A DNA stretch of 64,000 nt from IMG/VR virus record IMGVR_UViG_3300027908_000005, positions 1-64,000 of that record; one strand, written 5' to 3'. The notes below the pieces were generated by a model. It saw nothing but the letters and a program-made list of their open reading frames with translations, had not been told where the DNA came from and searched no databases. Source of the stretch: a virus. Shown here in pieces: positions 16,320-50,478 of the stretch; positions within the stretch are counted from its first letter, which is position 1; each line of letters begins with the position of its first letter. The position numbers and the translations under genes were made by a program.

Positions 16320-18722
16320 TTATCCGGGAAACTCTTTGTCATCATCCTTCTCGCTGCGTAGTCGGACGCCGGTCCAGACTCGCATCAGTACCCCGCCCTT
16401 GCGTTTCCTGTCCTGCTCACAGTGGCGTTTATTGAGACGTAGACCGAGGGCTGTGGCACTCTCGATCCTGAATCCGTTCTGTTCGCACCACGTCTTGTAA
16501 CCGCGATACAGGTCAGCCGCCGATTCCATCTCTTCGGCATCGAAGATACATTCTTCCGCCAGATAACGCCCGATGTGATCTTCCGATTGCCGATACCTCT
16601 CCAACATCTTCCGACTCTCGGAGGGTATTAGAAATCTTTGTCGTTGCTGAAGTCGTCGTAATCCAACTAATGCCCAATTAAAGATGCCGGAAATTTCCAA
16701 ATGCAATTTGTCATCCAAAGTAGAATCGCGAGAATCCTCCGGGATGTCATAACGCCATTCGATCGGGCAGATCCTGCGAAAATAGGCGTTACTCGGATCG
16801 TTGGTCGCCGGGAGGGCGTTACACGTGACGATGATTCTGCAGAAGGGGATAAATTGGAACGGTTTTTCCGTTGGGCGTCGGGCGTCGATGGGATCTTCAC
16901 CCCCAGTCAACGCCTTGAATGTACCTCCGTTTTTCTGCATCGCTTGCCGTGAGGGTTCATTAACGAGACCGACGAGTTTTCCGTAGAGGTTGGCGCGATA
17001 GTATTCGTTGTGAAGCTGGTCGATCATGATCGGAGTGGAACATTCTTCACTGACCAAATGACTAAGCACCCTGGTCGCGGTGCCCTTGCCATTCGCCCCC
17101 TCTCCGACCCAAAACATCGAAAGTTGCTGCCGATTGTCCGGAATGAGACAATAGCCGAACCACTCCTGTAATAGTTCCATCCATTCGACGCACGGTTTAC
17201 CGTCCCGTTGAATCAACCATTCGGAGAGACACCTTAACCATGTCGGACAGGTGGCGTTTACGTCGAACTCGAAAGAGGATTGACGTGTCAGCATGTTGAT
17301 AGGAGAATGAGGCAGGAGTTCTCCGGATGTCAAGTCATAGACACCATTGCGAAGGGGTATCCAATCTTTACGCGGATTGAACCGATTCAATGTGATCGGT
17401 CTCAATTCGGGTCCGACCATATTTTTGATGTTAGATGTGAACTGAGCGGTAATCGGTCGCAACTTCGCCCCCCCCGATTCCTTCAATCGTGCCAGCCAGT
17501 GATGAACTTCTGACCGTACAACTTCATGCGATGAGTAAAACCACTTGCCGGAATCATACGCCCACCATTGATCCCCTTCGACGTAGACGTATTGGCCTCG
17601 AAATTCAGCGACCCAGGCCCGCGCCAGCCCCAGATCGGAAACCTCGATCTCATCCGGCGGTTCCTCCCCCTCTGCCGACCCCTCATTGATCGCGTCCACG
17701 ATTCCCGGACTGACTTCCTCCTCTGTCGGTGGCACCGTGGTCTTACGCGTCCTCTTCACCGTCGGAACCTTCGGCGGCTCTCCATACCCCTGCCGTCCCA
17801 ACTCCGCCGCCGCCGCCGCAAAATTGCCGTTATGTTCCAGGAGGGCGTAAACGCTGAATGGTCTGTATCCCCGCTCCGGTTCGAACGGAAGGGCGTTTGT
17901 CGAGAAGATGTATAGATACCCGTGCCCCCCGTGATTGAAGGTGGCGGAGATGCCGTCGCCGCTCTTGCCGGGGCGAAGCAGGGAGACGGTCGCGCCGCGC
18001 CGATAACAGAGTTTCCAGCCGTGGGACTGCAGGAGTCTAAGGATGTCACCGCGCGCGTTATAGTCATCACCGGGGCGATTACCTTCATGGGGCGTGACTT
18101 CGCGCCGGATGTCCTCCTCGTATATCTTCTCCGGCGGTAACTCATGGAAGAGTCGCGCCATCGCCAGTAGAGCATCCAACTGATCGGCAGAGATCGTCGG
18201 GATCTCTTGAAACTTTCCGTTCATCAGACGATAGCCAGCCGATGGAGGGGCCCCAACGTATCCACCCTCACCACGCGTCTCGATAATCGCCTTCGATCCC
18301 TCCGCCATCCCGCGCGCCAGCACCTGATTATGATAGTCGCCAGACGCATAGCGCAGGTATAAATGCTCTGCGCCGCGAGGAGTCTTGACACGCACCAATG
18401 AACGCACGAGGTCACCGAGTCCGTGATCCTCGGCTGTCACCAGGAAGAGATCGTAGAGTCCGACCCGATCGAAGTCGATGATGTAGAGATTGCCGCTGAT
18501 CGATCCGCAGACGATACCGAGCCAGTCATTCCCGGCGAACCATTCTGCCCGTTCCTCGATCGTCGCGATTCGGTCTCGATAGGAATTCCATTCGACCAAA
18601 TCGGGACGTTTCGTTCCGTCCGGTTTCAGCGGAATCGTAGAGATACCGAGGGTGGCGAGGATGCAGGATGCCTGATAGGTTCGTGTGTTCGGAATTGAGG
18701 CGGTCATGACAGGAAACCTCAC
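16320..18722 (-). CDS. bifunctional primase-polymerase / SF3 (P4/D5-type) helicase
   Basis: 800 aa. N-terminal prim-pol pattern (PLKPDGTKRP ... GNLYIIDFD). Walker A GEGANGKGT in the C-terminal P4-family NTPase region. The start is GTG 18722 or ATG 18707. Confidence 0.9.
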   Translation of the reverse strand: MRFPVMTASIPNTRTYQASCILATLGISTIPLKPDGTKRPDLVEWNSYRDRIATIEERAEWFAGNDWLGIVCGSISGNLYIIDFDRVGLYDLFLVTAEDHGLGDLVRSLVRVKTPRGAEHLYLRYASGDYHNQVLARGMAEGSKAIIETRGEGGYVGAPPSAGYRLMNGKFQEIPTISADQLDALLAMARLFHELPPEKIYEEDIRREVTPHEGNRPGDDYNARGDILRLLQSHGWKLCYRRGATVSLLRPGKSGDGISATFNHGGHGYLYIFSTNALPFEPERGYRPFSVYALLEHNGNFAAAAAELGRQGYGEPPKVPTVKRTRKTTVPPTEEEVSPGIVDAINEGSAEGEEPPDEIEVSDLGLARAWVAEFRGQYVYVEGDQWWAYDSGKWFYSSHEVVRSEVHHWLARLKESGGAKLRPITAQFTSNIKNMVGPELRPITLNRFNPRKDWIPLRNGVYDLTSGELLPHSPINMLTRQSSFEFDVNATCPTWLRCLSEWLIQRDGKPCVEWMELLQEWFGYCLIPDNRQQLSMFWVGEGANGKGTATRVLSHLVSEECSTPIMIDQLHNEYYRANLYGKLVGLVNEPSRQAMQKNGGTFKALTGGEDPIDARRPTEKPFQFIPFCRIIVTCNALPATNDPSNAYFRRICPIEWRYDIPEDSRDSTLDDKLHLEISGIFNWALVGLRRLQQRQRFLIPSESRKMLERYRQSEDHIGRYLAEECIFDAEEMESAADLYRGYKTWCEQNGFRIESATALGLRLNKRHCEQDRKRKGGVLMRVWTGVRLRSEKDDDKEFPG

Positions 18723-36685: not shown

Positions 36686-36997
36686 CTATCTATATAAATA
36701 CCATAATGTCTGCCATCCACTCACTACATTCTGTCCTGCCGCGTAGACATGAAACTGGAATCTGATCGGCTCCGGCTTGAATGCCGGTTCGGGGATCTCC
36801 ACGCCATATTGCAACATGGTTTCCAGATAGTCCCTACGCGCCTCGTCAAGATTTTGCAAAGCCTCTTCGACGGTGAAACCCATCGCCATGCAGCCGGTGA
36901 GTTCGTCGTTATAGGCCATGAAGCAGGGTTCCCCTCCGGCCTCATCCGTCTCTACGTGAGTTCGCCACGGCTGGTTTACATACTCGTCAAGTGTCAT
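36686..36997 (-). CDS. HicB-like (UPF0150) antitoxin-fold protein, no HicA partner seen
   Basis: 103 aa from in-frame ATG 36997. GGEPCFMAYNDELTGCMAMGFTVEEALQNLDEARRDYLETMLQYGVEIPEP matches the HicB N-domain pattern. Confidence 0.55.
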   Translation of the reverse strand: MTLDEYVNQPWRTHVETDEAGGEPCFMAYNDELTGCMAMGFTVEEALQNLDEARRDYLETMLQYGVEIPEPAFKPEPIRFQFHVYAAGQNVVSGWQTLWYLYR

Positions 36998-37062
36998 TTC
37001 GGCGTGTCCCTCTGCGCTAACTATAACCGTTGTATCACTCCTAACGCTGACCGCCACGAGTA

Positions 37063-37389
37063 TTACTGCGGCACCCCGAACCGGTTGACCGGCGGCACGT
37101 CCGGGATCTCGTGTGAGGGGGCGACGGGAGGGGATAGGTTCACGGGCGTCGTGCTCTGCCCATCCAGCGCCCGCTGAACGGCCATCCACAGGAAGCCCAG
37201 AGGGAGCAGCAACGACACGAACCGGGAGGACGGATAGAGGGCGTGCAACTGTGGGGCCACCGTGGGGAGCGCCTGCGCGACGGCTCCGAGTGCCAACAGG
37301 ACGGACGCGCCGAAGCGGGCCGCGAGATGGCCGCGCGTCTGGGGGACGATCGGGACGGGGTCGCCGGGCTGAATGGTTGGATTCGTCAT
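37063..37389 (-). CDS. membrane protein
   Basis: 108 aa from in-frame ATG 37389 (TAATG junction). Two hydrophobic segments. Confidence 0.45.
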   Translation of the reverse strand: MTNPTIQPGDPVPIVPQTRGHLAARFGASVLLALGAVAQALPTVAPQLHALYPSSRFVSLLLPLGFLWMAVQRALDGQSTTPVNLSPPVAPSHEIPDVPPVNRFGVPQ

Positions 37390-37712
37390 TATCCGTGCTC
37401 CTGAATGAATTGCCGACAGCGCCGATACTTCTCCGACGTGTCGTGCCCGTCCCACACGTCGGGATACGCCTGCATGTGCCAACTGACTTGGCCGCTCGGC
37501 AGATGAATGAACGCAACGGGCCATTCCGGTTCAGCGGGGTCAATCCGAACACCAGCGGGATAGCCTGCCTCTAACGCGCAACCGAGGGCCAGCATGACGA
37601 GACGATAGCGGACGCCGTACTTTTCGTCATTGGCCTCGATCGCGGCGAGGAGATTGGCGAGACGGCAGGCGTACTGTTCTTTGGTCACGGCGGAGAAGAC
37701 GTCGGTACTCAT
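37389..37712 (-). CDS. hypothetical protein
   Basis: Track ORF, 107 aa. IHLPSGQVSWHM ... WDGHDTSEKYRRC. ATGA-coupled. Confidence 0.55.
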   Translation of the reverse strand: MSTDVFSAVTKEQYACRLANLLAAIEANDEKYGVRYRLVMLALGCALEAGYPAGVRIDPAEPEWPVAFIHLPSGQVSWHMQAYPDVWDGHDTSEKYRRCRQFIQEHG

Positions 37713-41714: not shown

Positions 41715-44700
41715 CTAATGGGGTGTCATCTCGCGTTGCAGTTTGCGTTCCTCCGGGGACATCGCCGCCGACGACTTCCGTGGCTTTGGGGGTGCCTTCG
41801 CCGCTTGCGCCTGCCGCACCTCCGCCGGTGGCAACGTCAACGGTTTCCCGCTATTAGCCCCGGTGGGATCGTAGAGGGCATCCGTGCCGGGTTCGCCCCT
41901 ATTGTACCAGTCCATCCGGGCGGGGACGGTCCCCCGCGCCAGCGGAATGCGGTTCACTACATAATCCCGCAGGGTTTTGGGGTCGCGGCTATACTTATCG
42001 AGTTGGTCGGCGAGGTCGGCGATTCCCTGCGGAACGATCGTCCCGACCTCCGAGCCGACCATCTTCATCGGGTTCTGCTCCGTCAGTCCCCCCGCCGTCT
42101 CCGTAGCCCGCAAAACGGGATTCTCCTCGAACGCCTTCACGCCGGCCTTGACCGCCGGTCCCGCGATGGCTTCGCCCGCCTTGTTGCGCTGCGCCAGTTC
42201 AACGATAGTAGCCCCGATCGCAGGGAGAACGCCGACGGGGGCGAGTCCGCTAATCTGGTGCCATTTACCGCCAATCAGAACGGAACCGGGCCGTTTCGAC
42301 TTATCGGCATTCGCGAAGCCGGTTATGACGCCCCGACTTGCCCCAATCGCCCCGATCGTCATCAGTGCCCCCCCGACGCTCTGGCGCCCCAGTGTTTCCA
42401 CGAGTCTCTTCTGCGCCGCCGCGTCAAACGGCTTGCCCTGCAGCCGGTCCCCGGCGAAGCGGACGCCTTCAACGGGACCGCCGACGGCGTAGTCCACGAG
42501 GCGCGAGGCGATGTTGCTGCCGACCTTTGAGAAGGGCATCAGGAAATCAATACCGGCCCTTCCTACCGCATTAGGCGCCACCGCCCGAGTTTTGCCTAGC
42601 CATTGCGTAAAGGCGTTGTCATTCAAGAAAACGGCCTGTTCCGCCCCGACGATCGCGTTCGTCGTCATCTCATCGGTCGGATTGTTTAGCAGTTCCTGTA
42701 CTCTCTGCACCCGCGCCGTTCCGCTCAACCCCTCATTCATCGTCGTCAGGCGCGCCTCCTGTTGAAGTGCGCGGGTGAAGGCATACAGACGCGCCGGACG
42801 GTACGTCGCGGCGTGGGCACGAGTGACGAGGTTGATATATCCCTGCGCCAGTTTGTTCGACGTCTGGACATCTCCGAAGAGGCGGTCGCGCGTCTCGCCG
42901 ATCCGTGCGATCGGTGCTACCGCGCGCCCCGCAATCGTCGTTCCCCGTTGCGCCTCCTCTTCCCCTTTCAACAGGATCATACCGGCCTCGCGTACTCCCT
43001 GTGTCGCGGACTGATAGACGGCTTTTGCGATGTCTACGGGGGTGCCGCCGGTGACGGTACGGGGATTCTTCGTCACCTTCGAGAGAATCGCATCCATCGC
43101 CGACGAAGGGAGTTTCGCCAGATCGTCGGCGGTCAGCGAAATCCCGTGAGCCAGCAAGACCTTGTCCAACGTGCGCGGACTGGATAACAGACCTGCCTTC
43201 CACAAAGCAATCAGTTGAGAGGACGCAGGGATCCTCCCCTCTTCCATCAACAGTTTGTTCATCGCCTCGTGATCGTTGGGGTCGAGGGTCGCAAGTCGCG
43301 CCGCCACCCGGTCGGCGTCCGCGCCATACTGATTGACCAGCAGACGCTGCGCTACTCTCCTCGCCGCCCTCTGTTCCGGTGAGTTGCCGTTCACACGATC
43401 ATTCTCTGCTTGCGCTTCTTTGACCGCATCGGTGAGGATCTGGGATGCGACGCTCTGTTGCTGCGCGGAGGCGCGCGGGCGTTGGGCGTCAATGTATGCC
43501 CGTCCCAGAGCCTTCTTCTGCTCCGGCGTCAGGTCCCGTCCATTGGCGACGGCCTTGATGATTTCGGGATCGACGGCGGCGCGGAATGCGTCGGCTTGCG
43601 CCTTCCCCAAGCGCGAGTTCAGGTTCCGATCAAAAAGCTGTTCCGGCGTTGGCGTCGGCTTGGCGGCTTTCGTGGCGGCTTGCCTCATCCCGTCGAGTTG
43701 CTTCTGCCAGGCGTCGCGCTCCGCTTGCGTCCTCTGCAGTTCCGGCGATGTCGGGCCGGGCGTGCGTTGTGGGGTCGAAGTGTCGCCGGTCTGCACCTTC
43801 TGTTTGAGTTCCTCGATCCGGGCGTTTGCGGCGTCGATCTTCGCTTGAACCTGCTTCTGTGCCGCCTCCTCCGGCGTCGGCTTCGCCGCCTCACGTTTCA
43901 TCGTATCGCGTTGTTTCTGGAGGGCGTCCCGTTCGCGGGTTGCCATCTCCAACGCTTCCGGGAGGGGTCGGTTTGCAGTCGGCGTATTCGTCGGGAATTG
44001 CCCCGTCTTGATCTGTTGGTTCAGTTCGTCGATCCGGGTCTGTACCTGCTTCAGTTGGGCAGCTCGTGCCTTCGCCTGGGCGAGTTCCGCCCGCAATGTG
44101 TCCCGCTGTTGTGAGAGTACCTCCAGGTTCTCGGTACGTGGCCGATTGGCCGTCGGCGTCCGCGTCGAGAGGTCGCCGTTCTTGATTCGAGATGTGAGGT
44201 CGTCGATGTCCTTCTGAATCACCGATGCCTCGCGCACGGGCGCCTGTGCGGCGCGCTTGGCCGTTGCCGCCTCTTCCCGTGCGGAGGCTACGAGGTCGTC
44301 GACGGTCTTAATCGCCCCGCCGGTCGAAGCGGCGGCTCCCTTTCTACCGGGCATCGCATCCAGATAGGCTTGCGACACCGTCCGTTGCTCCTCCTGCGTC
44401 ATCGCCTCGCCGCCGATCAGCTTGTGCAGCAAAGCGGTATCGCCGTCGGGTGCGACGGCGTTGACGAAGTCGGCGGCGCCTTTACGGCCCAACCGGTGCC
44501 CGAGTTGATCCACGAAGACGTCGCTGACCTGCTTCGTCTGGATGCGTGTTACGGCCTCGGCGCGGAGGTTCGCCCAGACGTGCTGGAGGTCGGCATCGTT
44601 GACGTGGTCGCCGATGTCGGCTTTCATCGCCTTCGCCCAATCGGCGAAGGAGCGTGCTCCGGCTTCCAGGTGGAAGCCGCCGATCGTCATGACGTCCTTG

Positions 44701-47700
44701 AGGAGTCCGGGCACGTTCGCCAGAGAATTGAGGGTTCCGGCGGTCCCTTTGATACGGGCACGAGCCGCCTGTGCGGCATCGGCGGTGAAGACCTTATTCG
44801 TCGCCCCCCACGTCCTACTGCGCGGGGTTGTCGCCTCCCTCACGTCCGCCTTCGGCTGGAACAGCGCATCCGCCTGCGCCGCCACGTCCGGACCGCGATA
44901 GGCGTCCGCCAGGATCCGCATCGACGACAGCGTCCGTCCCGCCTCCGCCGTGTGCCCGGCCAGCGTCTGCAGGATAACCTGATGCTCCTGGGTCGCCTTC
45001 GCGAACGCCGCCTGGTTCTCCTCGTTGGGGGCGGCGCGGTACTTAGCCGTCGCGTCCCGTACCCGTTCGGCGGAGTCTACCATGAGTTGCCGCAGGGCCG
45101 TAATATGGGCCGCTCCCGCGCCAGGGACGGCCGCCTGGATCTGAGTCGGGGTCAGGCCGAGTTCCTTCGCGGCCTTCTGTGTCTCGGCGAGGGAGATTCG
45201 GCCACCCCTGGCCCTTTCGATGTCGGCGGCCATGCCGTTGACGGTATCGGCGAGTTGCGCCTTGACGTCCTCGCCGGTTTGGAGGCGGTCGAGGTTGAGG
45301 TTAGCGACGTGGCCGGTGGTCTGTGGGGGCTTTACCGCTTGCGCTTCCGGTGGGGTGCCTGGGGATGGTGCTTCTTGGCGGACGGCTTGGGCGCTCGTTG
45401 GGGGAGGTGGAGTCCCTTCGACGCCAGGTCGAACTCCTTCACCACCGCCGGGGAGATTTTGCCCTGCTTCTCCAGCATGTGGACCTTGGCCGCTTGCTTG
45501 AGGCTGCGATATGGCACTTACGAGTCCTCCTTGTGCGGGCGACGTCTCCGGCGTGACGACAGGAACGGATACGGCTTCTGTCGGCTTCGCCCCTCCCCCC
45601 TCCCCGGCCCCCGCCGTCTGGACGCCGGGAGGCTGGACGGTCACGGGAGGGGGCGCGGTCGGCTTCCCCGTCTGCAGACTCCGCGCCTCCTCCACAGTCG
45701 GGAAGTTATGGATTCGCGCCGCATCGTTGACGATCTTCAAGATGTCGGGGCGTGCCTCGGCGAAGTGCGGATCCTGCGCCAACGCCGAATAGGTCCGGAC
45801 GAAGAGTTCCCCCGCATCGCCGCCGCTGTTGATACGGAAATGCCCCTTCGGGATCAGGTCACCGGAATGAGTCGCCTCCGGTGAGGGGTAATCGAAGTAA
45901 CGGTCGTATTCCCGCCCCGGCGTCCGTTCGGCCATGTTCCACAGGACATCTTTAGCCGTCGGCTTCTTGGTCGCTAGGAACTCGTTATCCATCGAGGCGT
46001 CAAGGGCGTGGGCGGCTTCGTGCAAGCCGACCGTTCCGCTCATCTTCTGCCCGAGTTGAACCGGTTTGCCGTCGATCACCTCCTGCCCCTCGGCCCGATA
46101 GTCCTGCGGAAGTGTGCGGGTGAAGAGGCTCGGATACTTCTGCGCGTGGTCGGCCTCGGTGTCGCCACTCGCCTTCATGATCGCTTCGACATGGGCGCGA
46201 ATTGCGGGCGACAATGCCCACGGTTGCACAACGTTCGACCCCGCTACCGATTTGTTCGGAGTCTCTACCGCCGCAGTGTTTGGAGTCACCGTCCCCACCC
46301 CCAGTCCGGTCTCCCGCTCGAACTGCGCCGGGGTCCAGAAGCGGTCGTGTCCTTCTCCCGTCGCATGGACGCCGCTGCGGTCGGCGGTGACGACGGTGTA
46401 TTTGCCGCCGTCGGAGTGGGTGAAGGTGTCGCCGGGGCGGACCGGCGCGGATGCCGGTTGCTGCCTCTGTGGATTGACGGGAGGTACCTCTGCCGGTCGG
46501 GGCGGCTCTTGTACCGTCGGGACCGCCGGTTGCGCATCTGCGGGGGGCGTCGCGGCCTCCGTGTGCCGCGTAGAGGGGGCGGAACGGTCCGGGCGCGTGC
46601 CGACGGCCACGGGAACGGGCGGCTTAACCTCTCCCGGCGGGGGCGTCGTTCCGGACTGGTCGCGGGGCGCCGGTCCCCGCGTATCCATCCGCCCCTGCGC
46701 CAGCTTTAGGGCGCCGATGTCGCCTGCACTCAATCCGTGTTCCGGGGCGATTTGGGGGATGGCGTGGGGCGAGACGGCGTGAACGCCCGCCAATGCCGCC
46801 ATGATTCCCGATATGAGGGCTTCCGGCCCCTTCCCCGCCCGTGCGTCCTGGACCGCCTGCACCCCCTGCTGTGTGGCGAAGAAGGCCGAGACGGCACGGC
46901 CCCCCAGAGGACCGAACTTGCCGGCCAGCGCGCCCGGCGCCCCCCACGCTACCGGGTCGGTGGTCATCCCCGCCGCCATGTCCGCGACGGCGTTGCCCAA
47001 TTTGCCGACGCTGCCTAACTTCTCGGCGGCGGCGACCCGTGCGGCCACCCGCGAGGGCTTCCCCATCTCGCCGACATTCACCCCTTTGAGAGCGTTCACC
47101 CGGTCCCAATAGCCGGACTTGGCGAGTGCTTCCGCCGCCGGCCAATCGCGGGGATCTAACCTTCCCATCCCGGTATCGTTTTTGGGGTTCACGTCGATGT
47201 CGTGCAAGCCGGGCAGCGGGACCGGGCCCCCGTACATGCCTGGGAAGGAGACGTTACCGCCGTAGAGGGCCGCCTTGACCATCGCGGATGGGTAGGCGAG
47301 GACGTCGCCGACCTTACCCGCCGCCGTCCCCAACACCTTCATCGGCGCGTCAGGGTCGTACTTCTGTCCCTGCGTGTACTTCGTCGCGCCCGTTTTTATT
47401 TGTGGTGTCGGCGTCGTGAACGCCCCCGGCGGCCCGATCTGCCCCGCTCCGGCCCCCGCACGGTTCCACGCCTCCTTCAGCAGCGCCGCCTTCGTCACGG
47501 GATGGAGGGCGAGTTTGGGATCGTTGACGATCTGATCCCGCACGTCCGGGCTGACGTTGGTCAAACGTTGCGTAAGTTTCTGATACCACGGCGCGTCGGC
47601 GTGGGTCTTGCCGAACTGTGCTGCCATCGTTTCCGTCTGGGGGGCGAATGTCGGCGGCTTCGGTCCCGTTGTGGATGTCTGCGGCGTAGCATTAGGCGTT

Positions 47701-48119
47701 AGGCGTCTTGCGTTGGGCGGAGTCAGTCCGTTCGCCTTCAGCATCGCGGGATCGGTCACGTCACGGGCGGCGGCGACGCGGGGGAGGAGGTTAGGCGCCT
47801 GCATCTGGGGGGCGAGTTGGGAGGCCAGGACGGCGGCGTAGGCGGCGGCGGGAGGTACTCCGCCGGTCGGCGTTATCGGCGGTTGGGGTGCCCCTTCCGA
47901 CGCTACGGAGGGACCGGGCGGGGCGGCTTGATCGGGATAGCGCGCGAAGAGGACGTTTGACACATGCGCCCGGTCCTGTGTGCCGAGTGCTTGATAGTGA
48001 TCGGACTGCTCCAGCCATTTCTGCCCCACGACACGCTTGTCGTGGGGTGCGAGTGCCTGAAACTTCGGCGCACTTTCCAAATCGTCGAGGGTGAGATCGG
48101 ACATATCAGTGCGGGCCAC
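41715..48119 (-). CDS. giant (2134 aa) virion/internal 'polyvalent'-type protein with HExxH motif
   Basis: 6.4-kb uninterrupted ORF. GLHEAAHALD (46019-46033). Three ~50-aa coiled-coil repeats, each carrying a P/T-rich motif (TPTANRP in the first two). Follows the transglycosylase protein as in podovirus ejection-protein clusters. Confidence 0.85.
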   Translation of the reverse strand: MARTDMSDLTLDDLESAPKFQALAPHDKRVVGQKWLEQSDHYQALGTQDRAHVSNVLFARYPDQAAPPGPSVASEGAPQPPITPTGGVPPAAAYAAVLASQLAPQMQAPNLLPRVAAARDVTDPAMLKANGLTPPNARRLTPNATPQTSTTGPKPPTFAPQTETMAAQFGKTHADAPWYQKLTQRLTNVSPDVRDQIVNDPKLALHPVTKAALLKEAWNRAGAGAGQIGPPGAFTTPTPQIKTGATKYTQGQKYDPDAPMKVLGTAAGKVGDVLAYPSAMVKAALYGGNVSFPGMYGGPVPLPGLHDIDVNPKNDTGMGRLDPRDWPAAEALAKSGYWDRVNALKGVNVGEMGKPSRVAARVAAAEKLGSVGKLGNAVADMAAGMTTDPVAWGAPGALAGKFGPLGGRAVSAFFATQQGVQAVQDARAGKGPEALISGIMAALAGVHAVSPHAIPQIAPEHGLSAGDIGALKLAQGRMDTRGPAPRDQSGTTPPPGEVKPPVPVAVGTRPDRSAPSTRHTEAATPPADAQPAVPTVQEPPRPAEVPPVNPQRQQPASAPVRPGDTFTHSDGGKYTVVTADRSGVHATGEGHDRFWTPAQFERETGLGVGTVTPNTAAVETPNKSVAGSNVVQPWALSPAIRAHVEAIMKASGDTEADHAQKYPSLFTRTLPQDYRAEGQEVIDGKPVQLGQKMSGTVGLHEAAHALDASMDNEFLATKKPTAKDVLWNMAERTPGREYDRYFDYPSPEATHSGDLIPKGHFRINSGGDAGELFVRTYSALAQDPHFAEARPDILKIVNDAARIHNFPTVEEARSLQTGKPTAPPPVTVQPPGVQTAGAGEGGGAKPTEAVSVPVVTPETSPAQGGLVSAISQPQASGQGPHAGEAGQNLPGGGEGVRPGVEGTPPPPTSAQAVRQEAPSPGTPPEAQAVKPPQTTGHVANLNLDRLQTGEDVKAQLADTVNGMAADIERARGGRISLAETQKAAKELGLTPTQIQAAVPGAGAAHITALRQLMVDSAERVRDATAKYRAAPNEENQAAFAKATQEHQVILQTLAGHTAEAGRTLSSMRILADAYRGPDVAAQADALFQPKADVREATTPRSRTWGATNKVFTADAAQAARARIKGTAGTLNSLANVPGLLKDVMTIGGFHLEAGARSFADWAKAMKADIGDHVNDADLQHVWANLRAEAVTRIQTKQVSDVFVDQLGHRLGRKGAADFVNAVAPDGDTALLHKLIGGEAMTQEEQRTVSQAYLDAMPGRKGAAASTGGAIKTVDDLVASAREEAATAKRAAQAPVREASVIQKDIDDLTSRIKNGDLSTRTPTANRPRTENLEVLSQQRDTLRAELAQAKARAAQLKQVQTRIDELNQQIKTGQFPTNTPTANRPLPEALEMATRERDALQKQRDTMKREAAKPTPEEAAQKQVQAKIDAANARIEELKQKVQTGDTSTPQRTPGPTSPELQRTQAERDAWQKQLDGMRQAATKAAKPTPTPEQLFDRNLNSRLGKAQADAFRAAVDPEIIKAVANGRDLTPEQKKALGRAYIDAQRPRASAQQQSVASQILTDAVKEAQAENDRVNGNSPEQRAARRVAQRLLVNQYGADADRVAARLATLDPNDHEAMNKLLMEEGRIPASSQLIALWKAGLLSSPRTLDKVLLAHGISLTADDLAKLPSSAMDAILSKVTKNPRTVTGGTPVDIAKAVYQSATQGVREAGMILLKGEEEAQRGTTIAGRAVAPIARIGETRDRLFGDVQTSNKLAQGYINLVTRAHAATYRPARLYAFTRALQQEARLTTMNEGLSGTARVQRVQELLNNPTDEMTTNAIVGAEQAVFLNDNAFTQWLGKTRAVAPNAVGRAGIDFLMPFSKVGSNIASRLVDYAVGGPVEGVRFAGDRLQGKPFDAAAQKRLVETLGRQSVGGALMTIGAIGASRGVITGFANADKSKRPGSVLIGGKWHQISGLAPVGVLPAIGATIVELAQRNKAGEAIAGPAVKAGVKAFEENPVLRATETAGGLTEQNPMKMVGSEVGTIVPQGIADLADQLDKYSRDPKTLRDYVVNRIPLARGTVPARMDWYNRGEPGTDALYDPTGANSGKPLTLPPAEVRQAQAAKAPPKPRKSSAAMSPEERKLQREMTPH
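45332..45517 (-). CDS. overprinted 61-aa lysine-rich ORF inside the giant gene (+1 frame)
   Basis: GTG start 7 nt after GGAGGA and directly after an in-frame TAA. Hand-counted GC3 is 52/61 in this frame versus 25/62 in the giant-gene frame over the same stretch. Confidence 0.55.
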   Translation of the reverse strand: MPYRSLKQAAKVHMLEKQGKISPAVVKEFDLASKGLHLPQRAPKPSAKKHHPQAPHRKRKR

Positions 48120-50478
48120 TCATCGCGGAATCTACGAAGTCGTTCCCCTTCTGCGGATTGCTCCGAGTCGTTCCGCCGCCACTGGGACGCGCGCCACCTC
48201 TCCCCGCCCCCCGTTGCGCCGCTACAGAAAGTGCGACGTTATTGGGCCCATCCTTATAATCCCCCAAGTGCGCCTTATACTGACCATTCTTGAAGGCACT
48301 CCAGGGGGAATAGTCGGGCTTGTTGGGTCCGTTGCGGAAGATGTAATCCGCCGCCGCCTTGATCGCCGCGTCGGGGTTGTACGCCTCATCGTCGGTAATG
48401 TTGACGGGCGGTGCGGCTGTGTTGAACTGCATGATGCCCCGATCATACCCCTTCTGCCCGACCTTCGCCGACGCCTGCCCCGTCCAACCGCCGGATTCGG
48501 CCATCGCCACGGCGGTGAATCGGGGGATCTCGCTTTCGGGTACGCCCGCCTCGCGCGCCTTCGCCGCGATCTGGCTCCCCTTCAGTTGGATACCACCGTT
48601 GTAGTCGATGTTGTGCCCCTCCCAGGACATACGCGACGTGCCGGGCGGTAACTGCGGCGAACCGTAGAAGGACTTCTGGGTATCGAGGATGCGACCGGCT
48701 TCGAGGGAGTTGGCGGCCTTTGACTGTGTCAGGTTTTTGAGAGATTCCGAAAGGCGCGCGACCATCGTTTCGCCGACCTTGTGACCGGGATTGTTGGGAT
48801 CGTTAGCGGTGACAGTGTCATAGAAGGGTTTATCCTTCGGGTCAAGCGTAGTGGGGTCGAATCCCGGTTTTATGAGACGCGAGACGTTCCCGATACTCAT
48901 ATTCGTATTCTTGATCTGAGTATCCATCGCGGCGTTCTCTTTTTGCAGATCCGAGAGCGTCTTCGACATCGTCCCCAACGAGTTCAACGATTCCTGCTTC
49001 GCCTTCTGCCCGAGCGACGCCCACGCCACCTGATCCTGATTGTTCATGTGCCCCTTCATGGCCTCGTGGAGTTGCCGTTCGCTCGTCCCGTTGAGTTCCG
49101 CTAGAGCCTGACGGCGGTTCTCCATCGTCTCCTTGAACTTCTCGTTGGCATCACCAAACGTCTGTAGCCAATTCTTGTAATTGATCTCCGTTTGCATGTT
49201 GGTCGGTTCCAGTCGGATCTTGGCGATCTGATCGGGCATCGTCTGGACCAGCAGGGAGTTCTTCGACTGGGTGTAGTCCTTGTTCGCATTCGAGAGGTTC
49301 GTCAGGGCGATGATATGCGGAATCTGCACCTGCGCCAGATTATGCTTATCGGTCGCCTGCTGCTGTTGCATCGTAAATTTGGGCGCGACTCCACCGGGGG
49401 CCAATCCGGGCGCGGTGCCTCCCGGCGGTACGGCTGCCGTAGCGGTCGGCTGGATACCGGGCTGCAACGTCGCACCCGGCGGCGTCATCCCTTGTCCAAG
49501 TTGCGGCGCAAGCGTCGCCTGCGCCGCCGCGCCCGCACCGGGTATTAGGGCGGCGCCCGCCGTGCCCGGTTGGACGTTGGGTCCGGTCTGAGGCGGGACG
49601 CTCCCCCCCATCTGCCCCGCCTGGTTCTGCATCTGGGCGAACGCCTGCGTCACGGTGGGATGGCCCATCGCCCGATTGATGGCGTCGTTTATGACATCGT
49701 TGGCGTGCCAGCGCCCCCCTTCCGGCGGCTGGCCGGGGGTGATTAACCCCTTCACCCCCGGCGTTACGGCGGCCAATCCAGGCGGCAGGTTCCCGCCTAC
49801 CGCCTGAAACTGTCCGAGGGTGAGTTGCCCGACCGGCGTGTTCATGGCGGGGTTCGCGTTCGGTTGTGCGGCCACGGCGGCGGGTGCGCCCGAGGTGGCG
49901 GTCGGCGCCGTTTGCGCGGCCTGCTGTTCTTGCGTAGCCGAGGGGGGTTGTGATTGGGGCGGTTGCCAAGTTCCGCCTTGCGTCCCTCCGCTCGTATCCT
50001 CGCCGGTGATCGGGCCGACGTGGCTCTCCAGCGCCTCAAGCGTGAGGTTCGCCGGAGGCTTATTGCCGTAGAGTTTGTTCAGGGCGGCCATAGTCGGGCC
50101 GTAGACACGGTTTTGAATGTCATTGCGATCGGCGGCACCGAATCCGAGTCCAGCTAACGCCGTCTCGGTCTTCGCCATGTCGCCGCCGTTGCGAACGTAG
50201 GCGTCCACCATGATCTTCTTGAGTTGCGTCTGTGATCGGAGATCGGCGGCGCTCAGGCGCTCCGCCTGGTTTCCCGCCGCCACTGTTTCCCGCGATCCTG
50301 CATTCGTCTGTGCGACACCCATCCGGGACGCCGCCTGCGTCCCCGCAATGTCCTCCTTACTCCCCTGCGCCGCCTGTGCCGCCTGGACCGCACGGTATTG
50401 CTGCAGTCCGGCGTTGAGACCTTCGAAGAGTCCTTTTATGGGAGATAACCCAATCTCAGAAGAACTTAGATCACTCAT
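48106..50478 (-). CDS. internal virion protein with C-terminal lytic transglycosylase (SLT) domain
   Basis: 790 aa. Q/A/P/G-rich N-terminal half. C-terminal AMAESGGWTGQ ... DRGIMQFN ... YNPDAAIKAAADYI matches the SLT catalytic-Glu pattern. Confidence 0.8.
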   Translation of the reverse strand: MSDLSSSEIGLSPIKGLFEGLNAGLQQYRAVQAAQAAQGSKEDIAGTQAASRMGVAQTNAGSRETVAAGNQAERLSAADLRSQTQLKKIMVDAYVRNGGDMAKTETALAGLGFGAADRNDIQNRVYGPTMAALNKLYGNKPPANLTLEALESHVGPITGEDTSGGTQGGTWQPPQSQPPSATQEQQAAQTAPTATSGAPAAVAAQPNANPAMNTPVGQLTLGQFQAVGGNLPPGLAAVTPGVKGLITPGQPPEGGRWHANDVINDAINRAMGHPTVTQAFAQMQNQAGQMGGSVPPQTGPNVQPGTAGAALIPGAGAAAQATLAPQLGQGMTPPGATLQPGIQPTATAAVPPGGTAPGLAPGGVAPKFTMQQQQATDKHNLAQVQIPHIIALTNLSNANKDYTQSKNSLLVQTMPDQIAKIRLEPTNMQTEINYKNWLQTFGDANEKFKETMENRRQALAELNGTSERQLHEAMKGHMNNQDQVAWASLGQKAKQESLNSLGTMSKTLSDLQKENAAMDTQIKNTNMSIGNVSRLIKPGFDPTTLDPKDKPFYDTVTANDPNNPGHKVGETMVARLSESLKNLTQSKAANSLEAGRILDTQKSFYGSPQLPPGTSRMSWEGHNIDYNGGIQLKGSQIAAKAREAGVPESEIPRFTAVAMAESGGWTGQASAKVGQKGYDRGIMQFNTAAPPVNITDDEAYNPDAAIKAAADYIFRNGPNKPDYSPWSAFKNGQYKAHLGDYKDGPNNVALSVAAQRGAGRGGARPSGGGTTRSNPQKGNDFVDSAMSGPH

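Follow-up and report, generated by a model that had tools for sequence, protein, structure and literature searches.

In a 64,000-nucleotide stretch of viral DNA (positions 1 to 64,000 of IMG/VR virus record IMGVR_UViG_3300027908_000005, hereafter the window), a short open reading frame (ORF) of 61 codons lies wholly inside the ORF of a candidate giant virion protein, on the same strand and in its +1 frame. An earlier reading of the bare sequence (the original prediction) had taken this short ORF to be a gene in its own right, and our comparative analysis indicates that it very probably is one. The features on which the argument rests, with lengths in nucleotides (nt) and amino acids (aa), are the following.

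41715..48119, minus strand: host gene, a 2134-codon ORF for a giant multi-domain protein
45332..45517, minus strand: putative nested gene, with a GTG start at 45517, 61 sense codons and a TAA stop at 45334-45332
45525..45532, minus strand: Shine-Dalgarno-like sequence AAGGAGGA, whose GGAGGA part occupies 45530-45525 and lies 7 nt before the GTG
45518..45520, minus strand: TAA in the nested frame, abutting the GTG at 45517 and closing the nested frame upstream
45335..45536, minus strand: part of the giant gene in which the giant frame runs across the nested gene (giant residues ~862-929), AQGGLVSAISQPQASGQGPHAGEAGQNLPGGGEGVRPGVEGTPPPPTSAQAVRQEAPSPGTPPEAQA

Checked against the minus-strand sequence and the ORF list, the predicted ORF proved right to the base in its limits, its GTG, its GGAGGA at 7 nt, the TAA directly upstream and its +1 frame relative to the 2134-codon ORF, since (48119 - 45517) mod 3 = 1. 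The ribosome-binding site of its own that had been claimed for it is likewise present in the sequence, with the 7-nt spacer CTCGTAA between GGAGGA and the start codon; in the giant frame, AAGGAGGA is read as ..Q-G-G... Upstream of the TAA at 45518-45520, the nested frame turns into Arg-rich non-coding text. The nested product, (M)PYRSLKQAAKVHMLEKQGKISPAVVKEFDLASKGLHLPQRAPKPSAKKHHPQAPHRKRKR, is a Lys-rich protein of 61 aa with a net charge of +13, and includes the peptides PYRSLKQAAKVHMLE and ISPAVVKEFDLASKGLHLPQ. The giant frame contains no ATG, GTG or TTG inside 45335..45536, nor in the next 33 codons.

The two frames differ sharply in codon composition. Third positions are G or C (GC3) in 52 of 61 sense codons of the nested frame (0.85) and in 25 of 62 codons of the giant frame (0.40), exactly as counted by hand for the original prediction. 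A per-codon trace shows that giant-frame GC3 is low only between ~45536 and 45335, which corresponds to the Shine-Dalgarno site plus the ORF, with sharp edges; on both sides it recovers to 0.7-0.9, much as had been claimed (roughly 70-85%). As a chance control, we drew 4772 segments, each 61 codons long, from six of the window's structural genes, and we set aside raw codon log-likelihood because amino-acid composition dominated that score. Over the overlap (giant aa 868-929), the host-frame codon adaptation index (CAI) was 0.420, compared to 0.499 for the lowest other frame-0 segment, and host-frame GC3 was below that of every frame-0 control. By contrast, the nested frame reached a CAI of 0.769 and a GC3 of 0.85, neither of which was attained by any +1 or +2 control segment, and real genes in the window average a CAI of 0.721. 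In GC3 and codon adaptation, then, both frames fall beyond all of the control segments.

The nested product is one of a widespread family of small phage proteins. Relatives starting MPYRSLKQ were recovered from viral contigs by a pattern scan, as free-standing genes of 51-56 aa located 5' of terminase-like or portal-like ORFs, and among 5.8 billion proteins a profile search picked out 238 protein clusters of 44-100 aa, nearly all of them 44-70 aa. None of these clusters is named or carries a Pfam domain. Called family genes sit in packaging modules beside genes for a DUF5681 or Sf6-type small terminase, the large terminase and an SU10-type portal. A hidden Markov model (HMM) of 120 family members, from which the window sequence had been left out, was searched against the six-frame translation of the whole window, and the nested ORF was its only significant match (E=6.5e-9, 32.5 bits), with the GTG opposite the family's Met1 and the alignment continuing into the basic tail. 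The family is recognized by MPY-x-S-x-x-Q, an aromatic residue in E-[WFY], ASKG-x-x-LP, a length of 44-70 aa and a Lys/Arg-rich C-terminus, and the window peptide shows every one of these traits (MPYRSLKQ, KEF, ASKGLHLP, 61 aa). Its closest members are those of loci L014 (60% identity) and L015 (56%).

Searches beyond the family returned nothing of use. Pfam gave no match to the small protein up to E=10, PHROGs gave no significant match to the window peptide (best phrog_10910 at E=0.38), and a profile search of the PDB found none. Among 50,697 GenBank phage records, neither tblastn with the window peptide or the family consensus nor a DNA search with the nested region produced a useful match. 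A confident AlphaFold2 model built on a 107-sequence alignment (predicted local distance difference test score 85) consists of two helices (residues 6-18 and 23-33) and, after them, a disordered Lys/Arg tail; Foldseek found no significant structural neighbour for this model in the PDB or BFVD.

The gene-in-gene layout recurs well beyond the window, in uncultured phages that mostly look unrelated to one another. In the AT-rich contig of L014, found in a metagenome scan, the 55-aa homologue (60% identical) is nested in the +1 frame of a 1669-codon ORF. Scans with subfamily alignments yielded 44 viral and 3 genome loci, and for each we located the family gene and measured the other two same-strand frames. 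Counting the window, there are 17 loci in which the small gene lies within a giant ORF (604 to >3300 codons); their GC content ranges from 0.32 to 0.61, and in all 17 the small gene is in the +1 frame of the giant (the giant being +2 relative to the small gene). The other scanned loci are free-standing copies, ~30 of them distinct. The small proteins of nested copies carry net charges of +5 to +13; the corresponding host-frame peptides range from +1 to -9, as their Lys codons are read one base earlier. Hosts other than that of the window include L062, which carries LPD37 and LPD38, and L056, which has a histidine phosphatase domain directly 5' of the nested gene. By BLASTP, most pairs of giant genes share the nested segment only.

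All 10 nested peptides that we tested were absent from a collection of ~15 billion predicted proteins, although their free-standing relatives were found in the predicted-protein search. This indicates that gene callers systematically miss nested copies, in keeping with the expectation that standard annotation would overlook such a gene.

Patterns of conservation point to selection on both readings of the overlap. When the small gene was resampled synonymously under local codon usage, the host frame stayed open with a probability of 0.23-0.28 for the window and 0.06 to <0.001 at the other loci, and for most nested loci this probability was <0.01. In every free-standing copy, by contrast, the frame equivalent to the host's carries 1-9 stops. 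Codon 3 (Tyr) is TAC in 16 of the 16 other nested copies, a choice that avoids the T|AA stop arising with the usual Lys codon next to it; the window has TAT there, but followed by CGC. Those 16 copies also all start with ATG and end after the basic tail at a length typical of the family.

Over codons 1-40 of the nested copies, mean pairwise identity was 0.60 in the small frame, compared to 0.39 in the frame of the host and 0.445 in the third, untranslated one. Codon positions 1, 2 and 3 of the small gene had per-site divergences of 0.41, 0.34 and 0.47 in nested copies and 0.42, 0.38 and 0.66 in free-standing ones. The small protein therefore diverges at comparable rates in both settings, while synonymous change is reduced when the gene is nested (0.66 to 0.47). 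The third positions of the host frame are the least variable sites in nested copies, and together with this reduction they provide the excess synonymous constraint that had been anticipated for the host frame. The further claim that the nested frame is the one under coding selection, merely tolerated by the giant frame, agrees with both codon adaptation (0.769 vs. 0.420) and identity (0.60 vs. 0.39). Judging from these comparisons of sequence, selection acts on both frames, and predominantly on the small one.

The presence of a Shine-Dalgarno signal for the small frame tracks the local style of initiation. A Shine-Dalgarno motif lies 5-20 nt before the nested start in all eight nested loci with a GC content of at least 0.56, and also in L032; the other eight nested loci are on AT-rich contigs, where no such motif precedes the other ORFs either. 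In 12 of the 17 loci, an in-frame stop is located 0-11 codons 5' of the nested start, which speaks against a frameshift as the way in. Around the nested start of the window, a segment of 101 nt folds less stably than 197 of 200 shuffles. A scan around the nested gene predicted neither a sigma-70-like promoter nor a terminator, and translation from the mRNA of the giant gene is thus the simplest arrangement. We infer that the nested start is used by internal initiation and that the small protein is co-expressed with the giant one.

Taken together, these results lead us to assign a probability of about 0.85 to the reading that the 61-codon ORF is a real, conserved protein-coding gene nested in the +1 frame of a gene for a giant virion protein. 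Under this reading, the giant gene would be transcribed as a single late mRNA. For ribosomes in the giant frame, the 186 nt would encode a Gly/Pro/Gln/Ala spacer, low in complexity and mildly acidic, that joins a variable cargo domain to a conserved C-terminal region. A second set of ribosomes would start independently at AAGGAGGA-N7-GTG and produce the 61-aa basic (+13) protein, which would fold as the predicted two-helix hairpin with its disordered Lys/Arg tail.

Several observations weigh against this reading. Taken on its own, the window has a fair chance of an open host frame (0.23-0.28), and because the nested loci are not independent (L042 and L043 are near-duplicates, and L053 and L056 are related), the product of their probabilities overstates the significance. 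The only close relative of the window's giant protein is a public, near-identical protein of 1695 aa from independent data (P0121, ~99.8% identical), in which the ORF is intact but which is too similar to gauge selection within the lineage. The nearest homologues of the giant gene whose DNA we examined, those encoding P0122 (locus L012) and P0123 (L013), have no family match in any frame, so presence is patchy. The prediction's expectation that homologous giants would keep an open +1 frame therefore held in part: P0122 and P0123 lack the segment altogether, whereas 16 more distant giants carry the nested gene in the same frame. The window copy is the most divergent nested member (32.5 bits, with GTG rather than ATG), and it has a 4-residue deletion and a 4-residue insertion compared to the main subfamily. 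Finally, no match to a family or fold in Pfam, PHROGs, the PDB or, by Foldseek, the PDB and BFVD backs a function for the small protein.

Among the alternatives, the one that survives best, though we consider it unlikely, is a selfish cassette: a mobile element able to enter a giant gene and leave it unbroken, its small protein serving the spread of the element rather than the phage. Such an element could explain why the nested segment is the sole detectable similarity between most pairs of giants and why it is patchily present among homologous ones. It also has a precedent in the ShiLan-type HNH endonuclease insertion of actinophage DNA methylase genes, which is out of frame, is read through by the host gene as an extra loop and hides a gene with a GTG start near its 5' edge and a TAA at its 3' edge (PMC11855218). 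However, a two-helix hairpin of ~40 residues with a basic tail bears no nuclease or recombinase signature, free-standing members occupy fixed places in packaging modules, and the codon usage of the nested gene is that of the window genome's own genes. The invariant frame and the low chance of an open host frame also favour a dual-open block that was inherited or recombined.

A second alternative, which we regard as very unlikely, is that the small gene was inserted or engulfed and is now a dead passenger, with only the giant frame translated and too little time elapsed for decay. Three of the points just listed would fit such a relic, namely the host frame of the window staying open by chance in about a quarter of resamplings, the window copy being the most divergent of the nested ones and the giants P0122 and P0123 lacking the gene. 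Yet the start, full length, stop and motifs are intact in 17 nested loci spanning a GC content of 0.32-0.61, including AT-rich genomes, in which stops would be expected to accumulate in a frame free of selection. Nor would a relic be expected to be better conserved than its host frame (0.60 vs. 0.39), to use the genome's preferred codons (CAI 0.769) where the host frame is unadapted (0.420), or to keep its Shine-Dalgarno motif in all nested loci of GC-rich contigs.

It is more improbable again that the small gene is flanked by two separate large genes, the 2134-codon ORF being an artefact of a frame open by chance and the overlap not existing. Giant proteins of this kind are mosaics of modules, and in many free-standing loci an upstream gene in the host frame does end in small-gene codons 3-4 (TAT|AA). 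Still, the giant frame of the window has no stop before the small gene and no start within it or in the 33 codons beyond, its GC3 recovers at 45335, and the host frame is open in 17 of 17 nested loci with an expected probability that is usually <0.01 each. P0122, a single protein of 2224 aa and the closest homologue, aligns in the same order to giant aa 194-454, 936-1282 and 1479-2086 and so holds both flanking parts in one polypeptide. The giant ORF is accordingly best read from its sequence as one gene: both of its flanks are matched in a single protein, coding-level GC3 resumes at once after the nested gene although no host-frame start codon is available there, and the near-identical ORF is intact in independent data. 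A sequencing error or compensating frameshift was also considered and was rejected in view of that intact giant frame and of the same dual-open layout in 16 other contigs.

Although phage structural genes do use programmed frameshifts, and the nested stop at 45332 would define a truncated N-terminal protein with a basic tail, a +1 slip into the nested frame, for which no search aimed at a slippery site was made, is hardly credible given the TAA directly before the GTG, the in-frame stop 0-11 codons upstream in 12 of 17 loci, the conserved start codon aligned with Met1 of free-standing proteins and the presence of a Shine-Dalgarno motif.

In contrast to the original prediction, which had the small ORF overprinted on a linker of the giant gene, the direction of events appears to be the reverse. 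The 238 clusters of free-standing homologues, called as separate genes, exclude a gene that arose de novo by overprinting and indicate that the small gene predates the overlap. Because the family of free-standing small phage genes is widespread, the small gene would be the older coding sequence and the ~62-residue spacer of the giant a secondary reading, constrained mainly to avoid stops. The invariant frame and the sharing of only the nested segment are better explained by a dual-open block that was inherited, or that spread through recombination, than by a new insertion each time.

One possible route into the nested state is suggested by ~8 free-standing loci in which the host-equivalent frame is closed at small-gene codons 3-4, where TAT AAR or TAT AGR yields TAA or TAG. 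Their positions are as follows.

L034 2202
L047 4625
L007 10001
L037 5001
L055 1416
L036 78
L058 638
L011 8001

In several of these loci an upstream ORF ends at this closure (in L034, an ORF of 317 codons). With the closure at Tyr3 (TAT|AA), one synonymous change could switch between stop and read-through, which suggests engulfment by gene fusion as one of the ways in which nesting may come about. In each of the two sequence subfamilies, nested copies are intermingled with free-standing ones, so either state may be the ancestral one. We also note that the Ser5 codon is AGC or AGT in 16 of the 17 nested copies and mostly TCN in free-standing copies. No single substitution interconverts the two without losing Ser, and AGC/AGT may therefore mark common descent of the nested state.

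We can offer a tentative suggestion for the function of the small protein, which is that it is a nucleic-acid-binding protein, or else a partner associated with the virion or with packaging, expressed late together with the giant. This suggestion stems from its charge and from the position of its free-standing homologues beside terminase and portal genes. As a separate observation, the family domain in L026, L027 and L028 (5001-5546) forms the N-terminus of a 181-aa protein whose C-terminal part contains three CxxC pairs (CPACDY.., CPRCGY, CARCGS) and is zinc-ribbon-like. This may hint at a nucleic-acid-binding role for the family.

A broader reading is speculative, and we hold it to be rather doubtful. 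In it, the dual-coding block of ~150-190 nt would be an ancient inherited junction module whose small protein partners the giant, with nesting ensuring co-transcription. The small protein could be a co-packaged or co-injected nucleic-acid-binding partner, or an assembly chaperone, of the giant. The block itself could serve as a seam for homologous recombination, swapping N-terminal cargo domains onto different C-terminal halves; this role is proposed because the block is the only well-conserved nucleotide stretch common to otherwise unrelated giants. Free-standing copies beside terminase and portal genes would then be escapes or the source, toggled by synonymous changes such as TAC<->TAT at codon 3. 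Separately, the giants of L014 (4001-4168) and L056 (5001-5165) are homologous along their length (25-62% identity) and carry the nested gene at an equivalent place. Their nested proteins belong to different subfamilies at residues 9-30 and have near-identical C-terminal tails (LPEHSQKAKVKIRVKKKD vs. LPEHTQKKKVKIRVKKG), which may reflect recombination inside the nested gene.

The best-known arrangement of this type is that of phage lambda, in which Rz1 is embedded in the +1 frame of Rz, has a ribosome-binding site to itself and is produced alongside Rz. Rz1, a lipoprotein, acts together with Rz in lysis, and the embedded form is regarded as having arisen within Rz. The window resembles this system in having a small same-strand gene wholly inside the +1 frame of a larger phage gene. 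Unlike Rz1, however, its nested gene has many free-standing homologues and so predates the overlap, and its host is a candidate virion protein of >2000 aa whose own reading would be a passive spacer.

The ShiLan-type insertion is a closer likeness, as there too a pre-existing gene lies out of frame and is read through by its host gene without stops. Where ShiLan has a homing endonuclease and a mobile insertion, though, the window encodes a 61-aa basic predicted hairpin without nuclease features. Pfam and PHROGs placed the nested ORF in no nuclease family, and its model had no significant fold match. Moreover, unlike the ShiLan case, the window's layout is repeated, with an unchanged frame relation, in giant genes that have diverged widely. 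With classical overprinting, as in the phiX174 genes E, K and B (reviewed in PMC8227390), the window shares two frames of which one dominates selection and a reduction in synonymous change, but here the embedded ORF is widespread and probably ancestral, and the novelty would be a segment of the large host protein.

The hosts of nested genes resemble large polyvalent proteins (Iyer et al. 2017, PMC5512222) in being very large multi-domain phage proteins with swappable cargo domains. The word "overlapping" occurs nowhere in the text of that study, which describes no out-of-frame gene inside polyvalent proteins, and our literature searches found no description of a small gene in a giant gene laid out in this way. 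The architecture is of a known type (Rz/Rz1, ShiLan), and what is new is the widespread small basic inner protein, the probable polyvalent virion host and conservation across divergent phages.

The locus is a rare case of an out-of-frame nested gene with comparative backing, in the form of 17 occurrences, a two-fold range in GC content and free-standing homologues that act as a natural control. It also reverses the usual story of overprinting, since the small inner gene is probably old and the stretch of giant protein secondary, and it exposes a blind spot of annotation, in that nested copies are missing from predicted proteins in which their free-standing relatives are present. Polyvalent virion proteins are believed to enter the host cell, and the nested gene would add a hidden conserved component to them; the small protein is a concrete candidate for a role in packaging, injection or takeover. 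We expect the locus to be a tractable system for studying dual-coding constraint and the assembly of giant mosaic proteins.

The giant protein of the window is best described as a candidate giant virion protein of the large polyvalent type (in the sense of PMC5512222). It has a DarB-like PHROG match at aa 993-1454 (E=5.6e-8) and no significant match in Pfam. A word-index search with the whole protein in the 15-billion-protein collection returned only P0121, with low-complexity words probably swamping the candidates. A tblastn search of GenBank phages with a segment of the L062 giant gave only remote DarB-like matches in Erwinia phages. Two parts of the window's giant protein adjoin the nested gene.

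44274..45314, minus strand: conserved domain (aa 936-1282), 47% identical to P0122 residues 1174-1524
45519..46757, minus strand: variable middle (cargo) part (aa 455-867), without counterpart in P0122

The conserved domain has hundreds of homologues in large proteins, and homology to P0122 restarts 6 residues past the nested stop codon. The variable part ends in a Pro/Gly/Ala-rich linker just 5' of the nested gene; where P0122 has a ddrB-ParB domain in its middle region, the window's giant has a region containing HEAAH. This HExxH motif (aa 700-704, window 46008-46022, minus strand) has no Pfam match and may point to a zincin-like metallopeptidase among the cargo domains; such peptidases have been proposed to process polyvalent proteins. 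Further along, giant aa ~1310-1480 (window 43680-44200, minus strand) comprise three loose repeats of ~55-70 aa, each with a "T(P)TANRP../TPGPTSPE.." segment and a coiled-coil-like Q/R/A-rich helix; examples are TPTANRPRTENLEVLSQQRDTLRAEL at aa 1321, TPTANRPLPEALEMATRERDALQKQRD at aa 1379 and TPGPTSPELQRTQAERDAWQKQLD at aa 1453.

P0121 begins at Met440 of the giant ORF, and because P0122 homology already spans aa 194-454, before that Met, the deposited gene model of P0121 is probably 5'-truncated. At the P0122 locus (L012, 263-1734), small ORFs adjoining the giant homologue have weak HTH_17 and PIN matches and may form a toxin-antitoxin-like pair. In the window, most structural genes have no PHROG match, which indicates a poorly sampled phage lineage. 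The GTG of the giant gene at 48119 overlaps the end of the upstream gene, which encodes a 790-aa SLT-domain protein (48106..50478), by 14 nt. Elsewhere on the minus strand, the window encodes an 800-aa primase/polymerase-helicase (16320-18722; PHROG 1156, E=1e-79) and a 288-aa protein with a HicB-like C-terminal region (36686-37552).

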